UHGV virus genome: UHGV-0040082
Direction: 5' to 3' (one strand)
Length of the DNA: 33,970 nt
Source: a virus
Below, in pieces: positions 17,667 through 28,583 of the stretch. The position numbers were made by a program, and so were the translations under genes. Under the pieces are notes generated by a model. The model made no database searches, was not told the DNA's origin, and saw only the letters and a program-made list of their open reading frames with translations. The first letter of the stretch is position 1. Every line of letters starts with the position of its first letter.

Positions 17667-17812
17667 ATGTACCAAATAGTGACCAAATACCCAAAACCAA
17701 AAACAAAAGCACTGTAACATACTGTTTTATAAATTATTATTCACAAAGCTAACCATTCCAAGCATACGGCAGATGGCAGGGCGACCAAGAAGAATTGTTG
17801 TCGTTTTATCCA

Positions 17813-19106: not shown

Positions 19107-19667
19107 TCAAAACAATTGCAATTGAAAACGTTCGCTGACTTCTTTCATTAACTGCTTAACATGTTTCTTATCACGCTTTCGCTGAGTTAACAGGCGGCTT
19201 CCAACCTTGCCGACCGTTTCGCTATCAGTAGCAAAACTGCTTACTGCATTCATTACCTGTTCACAGCTTGCGCCGCAACAAATAAGACCCTTAACGTGTT
19301 CAGCCATGTCATCATGTGTTTTAGGTTTTTCTCCGTAATAGCCATTATGACGAATAGATGGCAATACTTCCTCAAACACCCAATCCTGGAAGCGTTCGGC
19401 TGATTCAAGTTTTGAATGCATAATCAAGCGGAAAACATCCGGTTCGTAAATCAGGCCAACTCCTTTCGGCTTGAATCCGAATCCTAATTCTCGCGTTTTG
19501 CGAGAATCAAGTTTAATCAATGATTTACAGTGTTTTTTAATAGCATCATGCTCGTTCTTATAACCTAACGCGCGAGCAACATTAACAGCAACAAAAGCTG
19601 GCTTATCTGCATAAATAACCGTTTGCACTTGTTTATCATCAAACGAGAATTTAACAACCTTATTCAT
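19107..19667 (-). CDS. Bro-N domain protein (antirepressor-like)
   Basis: N-terminal Bro-N-like segment (AVARALGY..EHDAIKKHCKSLIKLDS ... SKLESAERFQDWVFEEVLPSIR); paralog of the ORF at 23783-24520. Confidence 0.7.
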   Translation of the reverse strand: MNKVVKFSFDDKQVQTVIYADKPAFVAVNVARALGYKNEHDAIKKHCKSLIKLDSRKTRELGFGFKPKGVGLIYEPDVFRLIMHSKLESAERFQDWVFEEVLPSIRHNGYYGEKPKTHDDMAEHVKGLICCGASCEQVMNAVSSFATDSETVGKVGSRLLTQRKRDKKHVKQLMKEVSERFQLQLF

Positions 19668-20674: not shown

Positions 20675-22090
20675 TTAAAAAGATGCGTTATTCTGATTGT
20701 TTCGTTGGTTAAATCGGCTTGCGCGATGATTCATAGACTGAATACATGCAGACGCTGCGCGGGCCTGGTCACAAGGGAGGATATTGCCGTTGTCATCAAA
20801 CCGCTGGTAAACAGTACCAGTTTTCCCGTGACGGTTTTTAGATACAATTATTTCCATGTATTCGCGTGCTACAGACTGCTCATCGTAATAACCATCGCGG
20901 TAAACCATGATGATCCTGTCAGCGTCTTGCTCAAGGTTCCCTGAATCTCGAAGATCTGAATTATTAGGGCGCTTGTTAGGTCGTTCCTCAACGCGGCGGG
21001 ATAACTGGGCCAGCGCCAACACTGGTACGCGCAATTCTTTCGCCATCATCTTCAACGACCATGACAATTGCCCTACAGCGAGATCGTGACGTTCGGCTTT
21101 AGCCAGCTTCATTAAACCGATGTAGTCAATCATTACCATGCCCAGGTTTGGGTGATCCTGCTTCATGCGTTCCGTTGTTGCGCGTATTTCCTCAACCGTT
21201 AACTGCGACGCGTCAACGATCCACACCTCAAGATTAGCAAGTGCGCTCATACCCTGGCCGACATGCGCCCAACCCTCATCATCAAGTTTTACCGGATTGC
21301 GCAGGCAGTCAGTTGATAAATTACCAGCGCCAGCAATGGCCCGTTCAGTCATCTGATCGAGTGACATTTCAAGCGTAAACAGCAAAACGCCTACCCGCTG
21401 ACCTTCGCCACCAGGGTAAGGGCGCTCGGCAGCCTCGCGAGCAATTGCAAGCGCCAACGCAGATTTACCAGACCCAGGACGTCCGGCGAGAAGTACCAAA
21501 TCAGTAGCGTTAATTCCGCCTAACATTTCGTCGAGTGGTTCTATACCTGTTTTGATGTTGTCAGAATTGACACCGCATTCCATGCGCTTGCTTAAAACGT
21601 CCGTATACTCCTGTACCGCATCACGCAACAGAACCGGAATGATCTTGTCTTTCGTTACCTTTAATTTTGAATACCGGGAATCAAAATCTTTCATCGTCTC
21701 TTTGACGACTTCAAGCGTCCCCGTTTCCAGCTTGTAGCGCATATCGTCGATGAGTTCCAACATCTGCCGCCGCTGGTGCTCTTCACGTAGTAGCTGTGCG
21801 TATCCCTTCAGGTTGGCAGCAGAAGGACACGATCGCGCCGTTTGCATTAGCGGTACAAAGTTTTCATTGCCAATCTCATCGCCAACTAATAACGCGTCGA
21901 TAAGATTCCTGTTTCTGGCTTGCGCCCGGATAACTTCAAACGCACGTTTATAAAGCGGGATCGTGAACACTTCAGGATCAAGTGTGGCGAGAACATCTTG
22001 CGCGTTAGGAGTAAGGCCACCTAACAGTAGCCCGCCGATAACTGACGCTTCACGTTCCTGCCGTAGTGAGTTTATTTGCTCAGTTACCAT
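20675..22090 (-). CDS. DnaB-family replicative DNA helicase
   Basis: 471 aa; N-terminal DnaB-like domain, Walker A GRPGSGKS, C-terminal RecA-like fold motifs. Confidence 0.85.
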   Translation of the reverse strand: MVTEQINSLRQEREASVIGGLLLGGLTPNAQDVLATLDPEVFTIPLYKRAFEVIRAQARNRNLIDALLVGDEIGNENFVPLMQTARSCPSAANLKGYAQLLREEHQRRQMLELIDDMRYKLETGTLEVVKETMKDFDSRYSKLKVTKDKIIPVLLRDAVQEYTDVLSKRMECGVNSDNIKTGIEPLDEMLGGINATDLVLLAGRPGSGKSALALAIAREAAERPYPGGEGQRVGVLLFTLEMSLDQMTERAIAGAGNLSTDCLRNPVKLDDEGWAHVGQGMSALANLEVWIVDASQLTVEEIRATTERMKQDHPNLGMVMIDYIGLMKLAKAERHDLAVGQLSWSLKMMAKELRVPVLALAQLSRRVEERPNKRPNNSDLRDSGNLEQDADRIIMVYRDGYYDEQSVAREYMEIIVSKNRHGKTGTVYQRFDDNGNILPCDQARAASACIQSMNHRASRFNQRNNQNNASF

Positions 22091-22124: not shown

Positions 22125-22631
22125 TCAGGGTAAAGAAATACCGTGATTGCTATGAAAGTTATACATTCTTTCAGCTTCTTTTCTTGCTTTTACGGCATCA
22201 TCAAATGAGTCACCGTAATAAACGTATATTGTTTTCTTTTTCCCATCAGACCCCCTTATACCTATTTGCGCGCGCCATTTATTAGTTTTCTTGTTCCATG
22301 TAACGCCAACGCATCCGCTGGTGTTACTTGATGGTATTGTTTTATTTCTGTTGTTCTCCCTCCTTGTAACCATCCTTAAGTTTTCGATTCTATCATCGCC
22401 AGGCACATGATTTATGTGATCTATTTCCATTCCATCAGGGATAGGGCCGTTAAACATTTCCCAAATAATGCGGTGACGCCATGTACAACACACACCATTA
22501 ACGCGGATAGTCCAATATCCGCTATGATGCCTACTTCCAGCAACGTCACCGGCTTTTGTTTTGTTATTTGCGCGGTTACAAGACCAATATAGAACACCGT
22601 CCCTATAGGTAAATAAATCATCCCACATCAT
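22125..22631 (-). CDS. HNH homing endonuclease with AP2-like domain (second copy)
   Basis: EIDHINHVPGDDRIENLR motif followed by GCVGVTW...W.A.I motif; start overlaps the stop of the upstream gene; paralog of the ORF at 3976-4500. Confidence 0.75.
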   Translation of the reverse strand: MMWDDLFTYRDGVLYWSCNRANNKTKAGDVAGSRHHSGYWTIRVNGVCCTWRHRIIWEMFNGPIPDGMEIDHINHVPGDDRIENLRMVTRRENNRNKTIPSSNTSGCVGVTWNKKTNKWRAQIGIRGSDGKKKTIYVYYGDSFDDAVKARKEAERMYNFHSNHGISLP

Positions 22632-23748
22632 GACACACCACCATTTCAGGCCTATATACAAAGCGACCAATTTCGCCATAATCAGGACTGTAAATGATAA
22701 CCGCCGCGCAACGTTGCGATCTCCATCCTCCATTAGTTGAATAAGCGTCTTTGCCCGCTAACGTGCCGTGGTGTTCAACTATGCCTATAGATGATTCTGT
22801 TACTGATTTATGGTGCAAATGTCCGACATGGACGTAAACATATTTCGACTTGCCGAAATCCTCGCGCCAGTCAGCTACGCAAGCAGCCAATAAATTTTCC
22901 GGCTTTTTAATAGTGTGCCCGTGGTGGTAAGCAAGAAATGTTTTACCGTACTGCGTGTGGTGGACGATAGCAGGTGACACATCAACCGTCACGCGCGGTT
23001 CATCTTCGTAAAAAGCCGCCAGCGCCGCACGTAGCCAAATCATGCCTGACTGATCGTGATTGCCTGACAACACCTGGATTTCAACATCCTTATGATTTAA
23101 CAACATTTTACCTACCGCCCGCCGGACAGACCGGATCGCCACATAAACAAGTTTTGCGTAGCGACTATCTTGATCAAGAATGTGCCCGCTTATTGGCGTC
23201 ACCGGGACCATACCGTCAGAATGAAGCAGATCGCCACCGAGGAGCAGTACGGCTTTTTCAGACATCGGAGCAGCGCCAACAGCGTAGTCAAAGAAGTCAT
23301 TCAACACGCGCTCAGCGATCCCAGTGTCGTAGCTCTCGCCGCATTCAGCTTTATGAGCAAGCGCCCCGATATGCAGATCAAACACCGGATAAAGGGCCAG
23401 GCTTTTTTGAAAATCAATTTCAGGCACTGGCACAGCCTCCGCGCGTGGTATTTCATCCGTGAAAGCGTCGCGGGCCGCTTCCATTAACTGTTCCATTTCG
23501 TCGCGGTCACGGGCTGTTTTAATCCAGCGCATGATCACATTGCCATCCTTATCGACGAGCAATGACTCAGCATTGACGCCAAAACCCGGTGCGCGACGCG
23601 TGGATATTAAACCGCGTTTCGCCAGTTTTGCGCCTAGCCGCTCGACGTTGCGTTTTGACATGCCATATTTTTCAGCGATCTGCTTGTACGTTAAACCGTT
23701 GTTATATTCAGCGATCAATTGCTCATCGCTGATTTTTCTTTGTGACAT
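22618..23748 (-). CDS. HTH domain fused to calcineurin-like metallophosphoesterase
   Basis: N-terminal HTH (LTYKQIAEKYGMSKRNVERL); then phosphoesterase motifs in order: DLHIG, GGDLLHSDG, GNHD, YHHGH, GHLHH. Confidence 0.7.
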   Translation of the reverse strand: MSQRKISDEQLIAEYNNGLTYKQIAEKYGMSKRNVERLGAKLAKRGLISTRRAPGFGVNAESLLVDKDGNVIMRWIKTARDRDEMEQLMEAARDAFTDEIPRAEAVPVPEIDFQKSLALYPVFDLHIGALAHKAECGESYDTGIAERVLNDFFDYAVGAAPMSEKAVLLLGGDLLHSDGMVPVTPISGHILDQDSRYAKLVYVAIRSVRRAVGKMLLNHKDVEIQVLSGNHDQSGMIWLRAALAAFYEDEPRVTVDVSPAIVHHTQYGKTFLAYHHGHTIKKPENLLAACVADWREDFGKSKYVYVHVGHLHHKSVTESSIGIVEHHGTLAGKDAYSTNGGWRSQRCAAVIIYSPDYGEIGRFVYRPEMVVCHDVG

Positions 23749-23782: not shown

Positions 23783-24520
23783 TTAGTTGCAAGTTAAAAG
23801 CTCAGTGATCCATACTTGTCCTTTAGCAGTGAATACAGCCTGCTCATATCCATCGTGAGTTACCCTCATTTCACCGTAGCCCTCATCAATAAACCACTGA
23901 CTGAATACACGGCGGCGACAGCGAAGATCATAAACACCAACCGCCGAAAGTTTTCTGTTTAATTTTACGGCTGACATTCCCAGCGGTTTAGCTACCTCTG
24001 AAGCCGTTCGGTGCATATCGTTTTTGACTATCGCGTCACATACAGCCGCTTTCGGAGCCAGCACTTTATTTTCAAGCGCAAGACGTTCATTTTCTTGCTT
24101 AACTAACAATTTTTGCTCGTATTCATTAGCCCACGCCCGCGCCGCTTCCGCAGGGTTAGAGAAGTCAGGCAAAGCAGGTTTGCAACCGTAACACCCATTT
24201 TCACGCAAAGCCGGAAGAACCTCCTCGCACACCCAATCCTGGAAGCGCTCGGCTGATTCTAATTTTGATCTCATAACAAGACGGTATATATCTGCCTCTC
24301 GAATTATAATTATGCCTTTTGGTCTGAACCCAAAACCTAATTCCGTTGTTTTAACGGAATCAAGTTTAATCAATGACTTACAATGTTTTTTAATGGCCTG
24401 ATGCTCGTCGTTGTACCCCAGCGCACGGGCCACATCAACCGCAACAAAAGCAGGTTTACCGTCATAAATTACAGCAGTGATTTTATTGTCATCAAAATTA
24501 AAACACATCAACTCAGACAT
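23783..24520 (-). CDS. Bro-N / KilA-C-type antirepressor-like protein
   Basis: Start at MSELM with GGAGA RBS; N-terminal Bro-N segment near-identical in places to the ORF at 19107-19667; longer C-terminal domain. Confidence 0.7.
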   Translation of the reverse strand: MSELMCFNFDDNKITAVIYDGKPAFVAVDVARALGYNDEHQAIKKHCKSLIKLDSVKTTELGFGFRPKGIIIIREADIYRLVMRSKLESAERFQDWVCEEVLPALRENGCYGCKPALPDFSNPAEAARAWANEYEQKLLVKQENERLALENKVLAPKAAVCDAIVKNDMHRTASEVAKPLGMSAVKLNRKLSAVGVYDLRCRRRVFSQWFIDEGYGEMRVTHDGYEQAVFTAKGQVWITELLTCN

Positions 24521-24652
24521 TGTAATTTCTCCGTAAAACGCTCTACAACGCAAAAATCCCACCGCGTAACCCGTTTGCACAGGTTGCAGTGTCTTATTGC
24601 GCCAGAGGCGCTATCAGGTGGCTAATTTTCGATTTACAGACTGGTATGTAGG

Positions 24653-24768: not shown

Positions 24769-25407
24769 CTAAAACGAATTATTAGAAACGAATTTTCTGT
24801 ATGGCTTAGGTAACGAAGGAGTGTTGCCGCCAAATAACAACCTTATCGCATTAACAGAAAACTCAACATACATAAACGGTTCACCATCAGCATGATAGCC
24901 AACCTGTTGGCGAGCAAGCCCGCGAAGCGCCATAGACGGCGTAACAATCCAGCCATTATCAACCTTTTGAACCATGCCCAGCTTTGCAGCAGCCTTATAA
25001 ACTTCACCAGACTTTCCAGGCAAGATTTTCCCTGGAGTAAGGAATACACCCTCAAGCATGTTGATCAGGCAATCATTTTCCTTGCGTAACTGCGCTGCCT
25101 CTTTCTCTCTTTCGATGAAGTAGTCACGAACCGCGCGCCCCTTAGGTGTGTGCTGGATCATCGCAATGTGTTTTGCTGCCTCAACAGTCAGAAAATATTC
25201 AGATGCTGGGCGGCCTCCATCCAGGTTATGAACATTTTTGTTCAAAACCTCAAAATCCAAAGACTTACGCAACCCGCACGCCTTTATCTGACGCTTTATC
25301 CACATGTGATAAGGAGTTTTAACACCCATTGCCTCATGTAACTGGCGACCGTCAACAGCCTCGCGCGTAACGCCGTCCATATCCTTAACAACAATATCGA
25401 ACTTCAT
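24769..25407 (-). CDS. AntA-domain antirepressor-like protein
   Basis: 212 aa; N-terminal region resembles the AntA/AntB family; RBS GAGAGGA. Confidence 0.5.
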   Translation of the reverse strand: MKFDIVVKDMDGVTREAVDGRQLHEAMGVKTPYHMWIKRQIKACGLRKSLDFEVLNKNVHNLDGGRPASEYFLTVEAAKHIAMIQHTPKGRAVRDYFIEREKEAAQLRKENDCLINMLEGVFLTPGKILPGKSGEVYKAAAKLGMVQKVDNGWIVTPSMALRGLARQQVGYHADGEPFMYVEFSVNAIRLLFGGNTPSLPKPYRKFVSNNSF

Positions 25408-25540
25408 TTCAAAATCCTCTCTAAAACGCTCTCTAACGAGCTAAACCGCTAAAGATATGCAATCGTAGCACCATGCGTGTTTTAGCTCGCTGGTGAGCTT
25501 GTTTTGTGGGTAATTTTTGATTTTTGCTGATCGTGGTTGG

Positions 25541-26587
25541 TCAAAGAGCGCCACATCGTGTATCACGTAGCGTTTTTGGTTTAAGTAGAAAATCCAGTGT
25601 CGCAGTAAAGCCATTGCCGAAGTAAAAATCTGAAGCCGTGTTTTTGAACGTTTCAAAGTAGGCGACAAAGCCGTTGATGCTTTTGTCTTTCAGGTAGTCA
25701 GTGAACGCATAAATCTTGCGTTCAAGATCCCTATCCAGTTCGGCAGGTGGCAACAGGCCATCAAACGTGCTGTTAAATGCCTCCACTACGTCGGCAGCGT
25801 TTGCAGTGGCTGACAGTTTGCGCCATTTTTCAGCATCAGCCAGATACCCATCAAATTTAGTTACCCGGCAAATGTTTATAGGCTTAGGTGTTCCACCACG
25901 GCTACGCCATTGCGTTAAAGCCCACTCAATCACTAATGTGATCTCATCCTCCGTATACGCTTTACGTGTTTTTGTTTCTGTCAGTAGTTCGATGAATGGC
26001 TTCGCATCACGACATTTGCATCCTGCCTTGTCGTTGTAGAAGGCCAGGCAACGCAACGCCGCTTCGTTTACGCCATCATGATTGACATGTTTTTCTTCTG
26101 GGGGGATATAAGGGGGTATATTTTTAATGTTCTCTTTACTGGTTATATATGACTGGTTAGGGTGACTCTGTGTCACTACCCCCGGTGACTCTGTGTCACT
26201 ACCCTGGTGACTCTGTGTCACTACCCCCGGTGACTCTGTGTCACTACCCTGGTGACTCTGTGTCACTACCCCCGGTGTCACAGTGACACTACCATGCAAT
26301 GACGGAAGGACTATTACATAGAAATTACTAGTTTGCTCTTTTCCTCCGATTAAGTATCTTGGTTGTTTAATCAACAACCCTTTTTCACAAAGTGAGTCTA
26401 CAGCCCTCATAGCTGTTCTTTTGCTGATCTCACACTCCTTTGCTATGTGATGGTAAGAAGGGTAACACTCGCCGTTATCATTAGCGTTATCAGCTAACTT
26501 CAACAGCACTAGTTTGTGCATTGGGTCGCCGACCTCAGTATGGAAGACCTCTACCATTAGCCGCATACTCATAAGCATTAACCTCAT
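25541..26587 (-). CDS. Replication initiator (lambda O-like) containing the origin iterons
   Basis: N-terminal winged-helix/HTH segment, internal peptide repeats GVVTQSHQGSDTESP x3 encoded by DNA iterons, gene sits upstream of the DnaB helicase. Exact start uncertain. Confidence 0.65.
   Translation of the reverse strand: MRLMLMSMRLMVEVFHTEVGDPMHKLVLLKLADNANDNGECYPSYHHIAKECEISKRTAMRAVDSLCEKGLLIKQPRYLIGGKEQTSNFYVIVLPSLHGSVTVTPGVVTQSHQGSDTESPGVVTQSHQGSDTESPGVVTQSHPNQSYITSKENIKNIPPYIPPEEKHVNHDGVNEAALRCLAFYNDKAGCKCRDAKPFIELLTETKTRKAYTEDEITLVIEWALTQWRSRGGTPKPINICRVTKFDGYLADAEKWRKLSATANAADVVEAFNSTFDGLLPPAELDRDLERKIYAFTDYLKDKSINGFVAYFETFKNTASDFYFGNGFTATLDFLLKPKTLRDTRCGAL
26161..26293. repeat. Origin-like iteron array: five 22/23-bp direct repeats plus one palindromic variant
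   Basis: ggtgactctgtgtcactaccc(cc/t) repeated five times (26161-26273), then ggtgtcacagtgacactacc; each unit has internal dyad symmetry GTGAC..GTCAC; AT-rich tract at 26100-26160 on the downstream side. Confidence 0.7.
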
Positions 26588-26593
26588 GACGAA

Positions 26594-26839
26594 CTAAAAC
26601 ATTAACTGATAAACACAGAAGAAACCTGGTAGCTGGCTGATTAGGCCGCTTCTTTTCAGTTGATGAAGTGCAGAGATAGTATCGCGTAACGGAATTTCGC
26701 ACATTTCAGCGATTTCTTCCGGCGTTACTTCGCTTTTGCCGTTGCATCCGGCCTTTGTTGCCAGTGCAATTAAGATGAGTTTTTGCGCCGGATCATTGTT
26801 ATTCAGGCGAATATCAAAAGCCTTGCGCACGTAATACAT
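26594..26839 (-). CDS. Small HTH protein at the Cro position
   Basis: 81 aa; first gene of the minus operon, divergent from the repressor; RBS GGAGA; its HTH resembles the N-terminal HTH of the adjacent O-like protein rather than a classical Cro. Confidence 0.5.
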   Translation of the reverse strand: MYYVRKAFDIRLNNNDPAQKLILIALATKAGCNGKSEVTPEEIAEMCEIPLRDTISALHQLKRSGLISQLPGFFCVYQLMF

Positions 26840-27143
26840 ATTCTATCTCCTATGATTAGAGTGAACGCGCGGGCGGGCATCCCATTAGCATTAGATAGCA
26901 GTGACTGACCGCTCAACAGATCCCGCCGTTGCGTGATATTTGTTTTTCGCTTCGCAGCGACACCGGATTTTTAAAGAGCTTAAGGCGTCGGCCTTTTTGT
27001 GCTTTCCCTTATCTTTTTCCTTGCATCATTGCAAGTATGGCTTTACCTTGTCAGCAAGTTTACAGAATGGCGCTAACGGGTCAAGACTTAAAAAACACGT
27101 TTTGTGACTTGCATCAAAATTTTTTAGGTTATAGGGTAGCGAC
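26840..27143. promoter_or_regulatory. Divergent control region between Cro-position gene and repressor gene
   Basis: 304-bp intergenic region between divergent starts; repeated element CTTGCATCA at 27019-27027 and 27109-27117, the first within inverted repeat TTGCA-N4-TGCAA; weak TTGCAT/TATAGG promoter-like pair just before the repressor ATG. Confidence 0.45.
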
Positions 27144-27647
27144 ATGAAAACAAAATGGTATGACTTAGCAAAACAACTCATGCGGGCGCAGGGCATGAGC
27201 CAGGATTCATTGGCTGATCTTATGGGGATAACCAAAGGCGGCCTTTCTCACTGGCTGAACGGTCGCCGTGAGCCGAATCTTGAAGATATTGCGCGTATCA
27301 TGCGGGCGCTTGGGCGTCGGCAATTCACTGTTACTCATGACGGAATGGTCATTGATGATTCTGTTTCTAACACGTTGCTGGGAGCGCCACCGCGTGATTT
27401 AGGCAGTTATCCGGTTGTTGACTGGAAGGATGTAGCAAACAATATGGAAGGCACACACCGATCAACATTGCCACACGTTGCTACTAGCGTTATTTGTTCG
27501 GATGATAGTTATTGGCTGGTTGCTAAAGGTGAATCAATGAACGCACCGCAGGGGTTAAGCATCCCGGCGGGGACTATGATACTCGTTGACCCGCACGCGC
27601 CAGCTATTGACGGAAAACTTGTTATAGCACAACTGGAGGAAGGGTAG
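27144..27647 (+). CDS. CI-like repressor (HTH plus S24 peptidase domain), ended prematurely by in-frame TAG
   Basis: N-terminal HTH (MSQDSLADLMGITKGGLSHWLNGRREP), S24 Ser motif GESM; TAG at 27645-27647 comes before the expected catalytic Lys segment. Confidence 0.75.
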   Translation: MKTKWYDLAKQLMRAQGMSQDSLADLMGITKGGLSHWLNGRREPNLEDIARIMRALGRRQFTVTHDGMVIDDSVSNTLLGAPPRDLGSYPVVDWKDVANNMEGTHRSTLPHVATSVICSDDSYWLVAKGESMNAPQGLSIPAGTMILVDPHAPAIDGKLVIAQLEEG

Positions 27648-27791
27648 ATACCTACGTTTAAGCAGTTGATTATTGATGGAGGCCGAAAACTTTTGCGTTC
27701 GCTTAATCCGCTGTATCCGCCAATCCCTATGAATCCAGAATCAAAAATATTGGGCGTGGTGGTTGATGCGAAGATCGTAAACCTGCCATAA
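27648..27791 (+). other. In-frame continuation of the repressor reading frame after the TAG
   Basis: Same frame translates to IPTFKQLIIDGGRKLLRSLNPLYPPIPMNPESKILGVVVDAKIVNLP, resembling the C-terminus of lambda CI (..FTFKKLI..LQPLNPQYP.I.....VVGKV..), ending at TAA 27789-27791. Confidence 0.7.
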
Positions 27792-27797
27792 ACATTA

Positions 27798-27818
27798 GCC
27801 GCCGGATGGCGGCTTTTC
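27798..27818 (+). terminator. Rho-independent terminator after the repressor frame
   Basis: Hairpin gccgcc-ggat-ggcggc followed by ttttctt. Confidence 0.65.
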
Positions 27819-27915
27819 TTCGCCCAAAAAAACACCAAAACGTAAACAGAAAACGCTATTTATTGTTTAGATATCAATAGCATATAAAATATTTTAAAAA
27901 AGTATACAAAATGGA

Positions 27916-27944
27916 TTGACTCGGTGTTTTACGGGGCGTATATT
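27916..27944 (+). promoter_or_regulatory. Near-consensus sigma70-type promoter (pL-like) for the plus-strand early operon
   Basis: TTGACT (27916-27921), 17-nt spacer, TATATT (27939-27944). Confidence 0.6.
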
Positions 27945-28198
27945 GCGAATCAAAGGAAGGGCGTAGGTAACAAAAGCAGCTTCCTGGCACTTTAAAAATC
28001 AGGCTTAACACCTTGTCAACCGTGGAGTAACTCCCCGATGGGGGACCGAAAGCGGCACTGATAACAAGGCGCATGGGGTGTTTAAAGCGTTACATCCCCC
28101 ACGAAACCGCACGCAAGGCGACGAGTCAGCTTGCTTGGAGTGAGCAAGGTCACACCGGAAACGGCGATGATTGCGGGATTAGTTGAAAGATGTTAAGC

Positions 28199-28236
28199 CG
28201 CTCATTAAAAATCTGGTCAGCCGCTGGAAGTGCGGC
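28199..28236 (+). promoter_or_regulatory. Candidate nut-like site (boxA-like plus boxB-like hairpin)
   Basis: CGCTCATTA (28199-28207; compare lambdoid boxA CGCTCTTA), then hairpin GCCGC-tggaagt-GCGGC at 28220-28236, about 55 nt upstream of the N-like gene. Confidence 0.4.
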
Positions 28237-28292
28237 AATTAACGAAGATGATTTTTTATTAAGTTTCATCAAGGATATACGGAGATCAGATT

Positions 28293-28583
28293 ATGAGCGT
28301 TACAATTATGTATGGAAAATGTGATAGCAAAATGAACGCCAGGGAACGCAGAAGGATAAAAAGAGAAAACGAAAGAAAATCATCACCTGCAATTAATAAA
28401 ACAGACAATGTGGATAAAGCTATTCGATTTGCAAACGAGGAAAGGTGCAAACCAAATAGCATTAAAGAACGTCGCAAAGGATCAGTAAAATGGTATACGG
28501 AAAATGAAAGCGGCAGCTACTACCACGCAACGCAACCACGCCATTTAGGGGAGAAACCCCTGGATAAAGTCCGTTACCATTAA
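28293..28583 (+). CDS. N-like antiterminator candidate (arginine-rich motif protein)
   Basis: 96 aa; N-terminal arginine-rich segment NARERRRIKRENERK; first gene downstream of the pL-like promoter and nut-like site; RBS GGAG. Confidence 0.45.
   Translation: MSVTIMYGKCDSKMNARERRRIKRENERKSSPAINKTDNVDKAIRFANEERCKPNSIKERRKGSVKWYTENESGSYYHATQPRHLGEKPLDKVRYH

Follow-up and report, generated by a model that had tools for sequence, protein, structure and literature searches.

The small gene that opens the leftward early operon, divergent from the CI-like repressor gene, encodes a stand-alone protein homologous to the N-terminal winged-helix DNA-binding domain of the adjacent replication initiator; neither its sequence nor its fold is that of a classical Cro. 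The gene is genuine and under purifying selection, lies outside the immunity specificity unit of repressor and operators, and is not essential for prophage persistence. Our working explanation, held tentatively and with slightly less than even confidence, is that it is a non-essential accessory of the replication module, a paralog of the initiator consisting of the DNA-binding domain only that modulates initiation or replisome assembly; both this role in replication and its mode of action are what we infer from the comparisons below. "The window" denotes the whole stretch of viral DNA that was analysed (UHGV-0040082, 33,970 nucleotides), and positions are those of this stretch.

The window was 86–95% identical to phages of the mEp021 group (mEpimmI, temperate E. 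coli phages), and prophages of the kind, also 86–95% identical to the window, were present in 35 of 5,426 complete E. coli genomes. The small gene corresponds to mEp021_14 (gp14), which is annotated "putative HTH, similar to MarR" and carries the label MarR in RefSeq and JGI. The mEpimmI repressor (gp15) and N-like antiterminator (gp17) have already been studied, nutL has been placed between gp14 and gp15 in mEp021, Rep021 gives immunity against A-type and B-type mEp phages, and mEp010 and mEp515 are both excluded by cloned Rep021 (PMC11893012). In this paper of 2025 gp14 goes unmentioned (PMC11893012). The MarR label is uninformative: compared with MarR (~140 aa), the small protein has neither the N-terminal nor the C-terminal dimerisation helices, and matches to MarR_2 were sub-threshold and confined to one allele. 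Annotation of the gene as an HTH/MarR-like hypothetical protein is already known, as is the domain family; no description was found of a stand-alone domain of the initiator type, conserved and multi-allelic, in the Cro position of Cro-less CI/N/Q phages, nor of the uncoupling of this gene from immunity.

Table 1. Positions of the features discussed, in window coordinates.
Feature	Position	Strand	Basis and remarks
Replication initiator gene	25541–26587	−	348 aa; HTH_36 N-terminal winged helix, iteron-encoding linker, P22 gp18-related C-terminal domain
Iteron array (probable origin), inside initiator gene, linker-coding region	26138–26295		Repeat search; about 6 copies of GGTGACTCTGTGTCACTACCCC, 22–23 bp
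Small gene (homolog of mEp021 gp14), allele A	26594–26839	−	81 aa; ORF and RBS, homology, winged-helix model
Untranslated leader, nutL to small-gene RBS	26840–26946	−	Nearly invariant (5 relatives aligned)
nutL-like element in leader	26947–26979	−	Sequence; boxA GCTCTTTAA at 26971–26979, boxB-like hairpin TCGCTGCGAAGCGA at 26947–26960
Promoter-like site, leftward early operon (PL-equivalent)	27057–27084	−	TTGACC-16-TAAACT; consensus scan only
CI-like repressor gene (rep)	27144–27791	+	HTH_3 and Peptidase_S24 (Pfam); amber at 27645–27647

Coordinates and the ORF map agree with the preliminary description in placing the 81-aa ORF first in the minus-strand operon and divergent from the CI/S24 repressor gene, across an intergenic region of 304 bp (Table 1). 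The gene starts with ATG, has an AGGAGA ribosome-binding site upstream, and is followed after 6 nt by the first ATG of the initiator ORF, the true initiator start being likely the MSMRLM at 26572. Overall the spacing to the initiator is 6–21 nt, a gap too short for a cII-like gene between the two, as had been noted before. The hexamers of the PL-like site are conserved in relatives, and from its sequence the site would act as the leftward early promoter; no intrinsic terminator was predicted between it and the small gene. The boxA of the leader is what we take to be one by resemblance to the rrn/lambda boxA consensus, and copies related to the nutL-like element lie on the plus strand at 27987–28003 and 28200–28217. 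At the 3′ end of the initiator gene, 23 nt of the plus strand (25589–25611) are 83% complementary to the nutL spacer/boxB region; this may be coincidence, or the stretch may serve rightward transcription as a nut-like site. On the plus strand at 26982–26995, directly upstream of boxA on the minus-strand RNA, is a terminator-like AAGG...CCTT hairpin with a T-run, in which relatives share the stem ends but differ in the loop and the fifth pair. Just downstream from the PL-like promoter, at 27020–27035, is a perfect palindrome of 16 bp, CTTGCATCATTGCAAG, and near the putative rep promoter (27108–27116) is a second site, CTTGCATCA; both are conserved in relatives and are candidate repressor operators. 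An Rfam search over 25400–28400 gave nothing credible.

Residues 16–74 of the small protein and 21–79 of the adjacent initiator were aligned by BLASTP with 21 of 59 positions identical (36%), no gaps and E = 1e-9. Profile-profile comparison with hhalign, using 12 small-protein alleles and 9 initiators, gave a probability of 99.4% and E = 1.1e-21 over 83 columns, the equivalent region being initiator residues 6–96. The resemblance between the two HTH regions, previously seen by eye, is thus significant by both pairwise and profile comparison. In PHROG, the small protein matched solely the N-terminal parts of replication-initiator families, over their N-terminal 70–90 positions (phrog_4617 at 1e-9 for allele A and 5.6e-21 for allele B; also 8540, 270, 186 and 391), and no Cro or regulator family was matched. 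Pfam gave only sub-threshold winged-helix matches on the window protein (HTH_36 at 15.1 bits, cut-off 25), none to Cro, P22_Cro, HTH_3, YdaS or Xre at E ≤ 1, and none to Phage_CII or Phage_CP76; PF13730 is precomputed on several B alleles. The AlphaFold model, made with an alignment of 17 sequences, is a winged helix (pLDDT 92.8), and among viral models it was matched best by the N-terminal domains of replication proteins from phages (TM 0.83–0.88). With this fold, and with no Cro or Xre match in Pfam or PHROG, the earlier statement that the gene is not a classical Cro is upheld. The protein stops after the wing, and has neither the iteron linker nor the C-terminal domain for helicase or loader recruitment.

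Other searches with the small protein returned little. In the PDB, sequence matches to MarR, AspA and TubR were all sub-significant, the matches being generic winged helices only. HMMER, word-indexed and exhaustive, found almost no relatives beyond the mEp021 group, NCBIfam gave nothing, and PADLOC and anti-defence families gave weak matches, none significant. Matches by tblastn in the phage collection were mostly to the N-termini of full-length initiators, not to stand-alone genes. A 73-aa ORF upstream of a related initiator, in Stenotrophomonas phage BUCT708, was rejected as a member, being unlike the small-gene family on inspection of its sequence.

The HTH_36 domain of the initiator was recognised by Pfam with E 7e-15, and the PHROG assignment was to replication-initiator families. 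Its C-terminal 86 aa are 36% identical to P22 gp18, an initiator whose partner is a phage helicase of the DnaB type; a gene for such a helicase is present in the window at 20675–22090. Each iteron copy contains an internal GTGAC..GTCAC inverted repeat. The mEp021 iteron differs (GGTTGCTCTCTGCCAC...), and B-type relatives have 11-bp TCATGACCCTT repeats instead. The N-terminal domain of the initiator is of the HTH_36 type in phages with A alleles of the small gene and of the DUF4373/Lin1244 type in those with B alleles. When the window gene was compared with its counterparts in E. coli WCHEC025970 and mEp515 (L003/L004), the initiator appeared modular, its DNA-binding domain and iterons being swapped as a cassette and its C-terminal half staying about 95% identical. 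The 5′ boundary between A and B falls exactly at the start codon of the small gene (alignment of 5 relatives) and the 3′ boundary at about initiator residue 160. The locus offers a clean natural example of modular initiator evolution, with a cassette of DNA-binding domain and iterons set against a constant helicase-recruiting C-terminus.

The small gene itself occurs as two deep alleles: A, of 81 aa (MYYV...), in the window, mEp021, mEp010 and others, and B, of 84–85 aa (MSMN...), in mEp515 and most prophages. The two are 35–39% identical, and dS between them is saturated. Nearly all of the ~45 loci examined have kept the gene; wherever it was present in the mEpimmI loci read, it immediately preceded the initiator gene, regardless of the type of DNA-binding domain encoded there. 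The adjacent initiator had the unrelated DUF4373/Lin1244 domain in 29 of ~42 related loci read, and there too the small gene was HTH_36-like. Values of dN/dS were 0.03–0.06 within A and 0.18–0.35 within B, and dS within B reached about 1.2, compared with 0.3–0.8 for rep. The preliminary description had proposed a duplicated initiator DNA-binding domain. Homology to the initiator domain stands; the protein is not, however, a copy of the neighbouring initiator, since its two alleles are ancient and B-type initiators carry an unrelated domain, and a recent tandem duplication of the neighbour's domain was rejected on the same grounds.

These data also bear on whether the gene is a relic without function, a remnant of an ancestral initiator whose N-terminal domain was orphaned by the insertion of a new DNA-binding domain and iterons. 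Allele B does align end to end with positions 1–89 of phrog_4617, an initiator family of 223 residues (E 5.6e-21), recombination exchanges initiator domains in this group, and null alleles are tolerated. However, the frame is intact and the length constant across alleles whose synonymous sites are saturated, dN/dS is 0.03–0.35, and the gene is retained at nearly all loci. The selection analysis largely refutes this explanation, which we regard as very improbable.

Variation within the small protein is greatest in helix 3 and the wing, with helices 1 and 2 conserved. Over helix 3 and the wing, A alleles have a net charge of 0 to +2 and B alleles one of −2 to −4; the initiator domain has +4, and small proteins of the Psychromonas type (described below) have +3 to +5. 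Sub-alleles of B range from 58% to 96% identity, whereas the DUF4373 domain is 91–98% identical at every locus except one. The window and mEp021 differ in their iterons and in the recognition helix of the initiator, yet their small proteins are 96% identical. One further allele (P0025, on a Logan SRR16152060 contig) has a B-like N-terminal half and helix 3 and an A-like wing and stands before an A-type initiator; this mosaic shows intragenic recombination between the two deep alleles. Because the iterons change without the small protein, the B sub-alleles are spread widely and the mosaic exists, the association of small-gene allele with initiator type looks like physical linkage and not functional coupling.

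A role for the small protein as a general competitor for the iterons was rejected, since the iterons and the initiator recognition helix change while the small protein does not, and in view of the mosaic. Of the earlier suggestion that it modulates replication, the general idea fits best, but the simple iteron-competitor version is contradicted. Heterodimerisation with the initiator through paralogous domains is not general either, because the DNA-binding domain of the B-type initiator is unrelated. An embedded DNA or RNA element within the small gene was likewise rejected: per-codon counts of alternative synonymous codons did not show synonymous variation to be suppressed over any stretch of the gene, and a search for conserved repeats inside it gave none.

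A second candidate role is that of a functional Cro analogue, an early lytic regulator that binds the rep–gp14 intergenic region and lowers repressor synthesis and/or the activity of early promoters, using an initiator-derived winged helix instead of a Cro or Xre fold. The gene is small, has a predicted DNA-binding fold and heads the early operon, facing away from the CI/S24 repressor gene; with no terminator predicted after the promoter it could be immediate-early; candidate operators such as the palindrome at 27020–27035 exist; and no other Cro-, HTH_3- or cII-like protein was detected among the early ORFs of the window. Against this, alleles that are 35–39% identical and differ in helix 3 and the wing accompany identical rep genes and an intergenic region that does not co-vary. 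The rep genes of mEp010 (A) and mEp515 (B), whose small proteins are 35% identical, are identical (dN = dS = 0), and a 2.3-kb alignment of 30 loci, spanning PL, nutL, rep, PR, nutR1 and the N-like gene, contained no allele-segregating columns above 26840 outside the start-codon region. Since the alleles exchange independently of the repressor and operators, the small gene is not part of the immunity unit. The predicted acidic surface of helix 3 and the wing in B alleles, together with the variability of this region, is hard to reconcile with the reading of operators, and the protein has no sequence relationship to any Cro family. Two further observations, set out in the next paragraphs, count against a Cro: null alleles and a precise deletion are maintained in prophages that otherwise look intact and whose repressor is intact, and homologous small genes elsewhere adjoin a Cro of their own. 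On this evidence the lytic-switch regulator of the preliminary description is disfavoured and a Cro analogue is unlikely. It is given this much weight because null prophages may not grow lytically and because the Psychromonas gene pair may be an independent duplication; with no other recognisable Cro candidate in mEpimmI phages, some switch function could still reside in the small gene.

A precise deletion of the small gene, from ribosome-binding site to ribosome-binding site and with an identical junction, was found in three complete E. coli genomes: Ecol_244, PAR and KKa019 (L050, L052 and L053). Its endpoints are the two AGGAG ribosome-binding sites, and the sources of the strains were a human (Argentina), a cockatoo (China) and river water (Japan). 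A second null, a widespread ochre allele with Leu51 changed from TTA to TAA (L054–L057), was indexed in 150 blocks of the assembly collection. Downstream of the initiator, PAR and KKa019 carry another winged-helix gene, a MarR-like one, for which the same DNA is annotated with 77 aa in PAR but with 49 aa in KKa019; homology of the 77-aa product to the small gene was not demonstrable (hhalign probability 6%), and it was rejected as a relative.

Gene pairs of the same kind were found in distant prophages. In two Psychromonas prophages the order is cI(S24), divergent from P22_Cro, a CP76 cII-like gene, a 110-aa ORF, a small HTH_36 gene (92 aa), an HTH_36 initiator and a lambda-P-like loader. In one marine-metagenome contig, which has no CP76 gene, it is cI(S24), divergent from P22_Cro, a 55-aa ORF, a small HTH_36 gene (107 aa) and the initiator. 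From these layouts, the pair of small gene and initiator occurs alongside a bona fide Cro. The Psychromonas and marine small proteins (P0010 and P0031) resemble gp14 in being stand-alone initiator-type winged helices encoded immediately upstream of an HTH_36 initiator gene, which the P0010/P0031 gene overlaps; unlike gp14, they keep an initiator-like basic recognition helix, KRTAMR. With 42% identity to its own initiator and 31–39% to gp14, the small protein of Psychromonas resembles the former more closely, so the Psychromonas and mEpimmI pairs may be independent duplications.

Among known proteins, the N-terminal domain of O-like initiators (HTH_36/Phage_rep_O; PHROGs 4617, 391, 8540 and 270) is similar over the whole length of the small protein, with the same fold and the helix signature KL(V/I)L..LA. 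The small protein differs in standing alone at 81 aa, with no linker or C-terminal domain, in the non-basic character of helix 3 and the wing and, compared with a full initiator, in that this region does not co-vary with the iterons. With lambda Cro and P22 Cro it shares small size and a position next to a CI/S24 repressor gene; its gene, in contrast, is downstream of the nut site and outside the immunity unit, and sequence and fold are unrelated. P2 Cox and 186 Apl, each the first gene of a lytic operon and of winged-helix or HTH type, repress the lysogenic promoter and serve as excisionases. They too are small proteins of DNA-binding fold opening an early lytic operon opposite an immunity repressor, but no sequence similarity to them was detectable, no direct repeats like a "Cox box" that co-vary with the allele were found, and mEp021 has a separate small HTH gene next to int. 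The E8^E2/E2-TR forms of papillomavirus and the short pi forms of R6K are forms of initiators, consisting of the DNA-binding domain only, that modulate replication. The parallel is one of function only, a truncated initiator DNA-binding module existing alongside the full initiator; the small gene, by contrast, is separate and long diverged, does not have its iteron specificity in common with the initiator, and in B-type phages belongs to a different domain family from it.

If the small gene is an accessory of the replication module, the leftward early promoter would give a transcript through nutL with the small gene as the first cistron of the replication operon, followed by the initiator, variable cargo genes, the exonuclease-like protein, the HNH endonuclease and the DnaB-type helicase. 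The protein would act on a conserved partner by way of the likewise conserved face of helices 1 and 2, or would bind DNA weakly or in a non-canonical manner; these are likelier than the reading of operators or iterons because helix 3 and the wing are variable and have lost their basic character. Its place in the Cro position would then reflect nothing more than the absence of cro and cII genes from these phages. Such a role has to accommodate a small protein that does not track initiator specificity, as seen in the iterons of the window and mEp021, the B sub-alleles and the mosaic, and a B-type initiator whose DNA-binding domain is unrelated to it. The lack of another Cro candidate in mEpimmI phages also weighs against it, as does the possibility that the Psychromonas pair arose by independent duplication and does not belong to one conserved system.

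The diversity of the gene is the starting point for a different explanation, in which it serves counter-defence or competition between phages, as a decoy initiator domain that hinders replication of a co-infecting phage or as a protein that evades or blocks a host sensor, under frequency-dependent selection. The gene is early and dispensable, many deep alleles and mosaics occur in one otherwise homogeneous phage group, with dS within B above that of rep, and it is mainly helix 3 and the wing that vary, helices 1 and 2 being conserved. Nevertheless, overall dN/dS is well below 1, no significant match to a PADLOC or anti-defence family and no tie to any defence system was found, and the explanation is drawn purely from the diversity pattern; we consider it rather unlikely.

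Less credible still is a transcription factor, cII-like or otherwise, whose sites lie within its own cassette; it might, for instance, switch on an antisense promoter directed at rep, in the manner of lambda cII at PRE. The small gene fills the lambdoid cII slot, between nut site and initiator, and a target within the cassette would explain why the allele changes with no change elsewhere. Yet the protein has no similarity to the cII or CP76 families, the gene contains no conserved repeats and no region of suppressed synonymous variation, and the terminator-like plus-strand hairpin lies between it and rep. The acidic DNA-reading surface of B alleles and the separate CP76 cII-like gene of the Psychromonas prophages are further points against such a factor, which we judge improbable.

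If the gene at the Cro position is no Cro, mEpimmI phages decide between lysis and lysogeny without the textbook double-negative switch, in a circuit so far studied only for the repressor and the N-like antiterminator. A broader picture, offered as speculation and to be given little weight, is that mEpimmI uses a temperate circuit of the CI/N/Q type without any Cro, that the small protein, in most alleles now acidic on its canonical DNA-reading surface, is a protein-binding modulator of the timing or licensing of the initiator–helicase step or a decoy against rival phages, and that its deep, recombining alleles are maintained by frequency-dependent selection. For annotation pipelines, the case is a caution against calling "cro" a gene because it is divergent from cI, and "MarR" any small winged helix.

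Several features of the window genome itself concern lysogeny. The amber codon of rep is an in-frame TAG where 16 of the 16 relatives listed have CAG (Gln168). It removes the C-terminal 47 residues, including an FKQL motif matched by eye to the lysine motif of peptidases of the LexA/CI type, and the window repressor is probably inactive. At about 17709–17758 the end of the tail-fibre gene is joined almost directly to a gp03 homolog; absent there is about 1.5 kb that in mEp021 and mEp010 carries the integrase gene and most of a small HTH gene (Xis-like?). Given the amber codon and the missing int region, the window genome is probably unable to lysogenise, which suggests an obligately lytic or lysogeny-defective derivative.

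The replication operon of the window contains three antirepressor-type genes, all on the minus strand: AntA/AntB (24769–25407), Bro-N with KilAC (23783–24580) and Bro-N (19107–19667). A conserved gene of 376 aa with an N-terminal HTH (22618–23748, minus strand) matches phrog_704, "DNA repair exonuclease", and its 3′ end is overlapped by 116 nt by an HNH endonuclease gene (HNH_3 and AP2; 22125–22733, minus strand). The HNH gene is missing at this position in some relatives, as expected of a homing endonuclease insertion. The slot between the initiator and the exonuclease-like gene holds variable cargo, a zinc-ribbon protein in mEp021, Rha in strain E21845 and the MarR-like gene in PAR.
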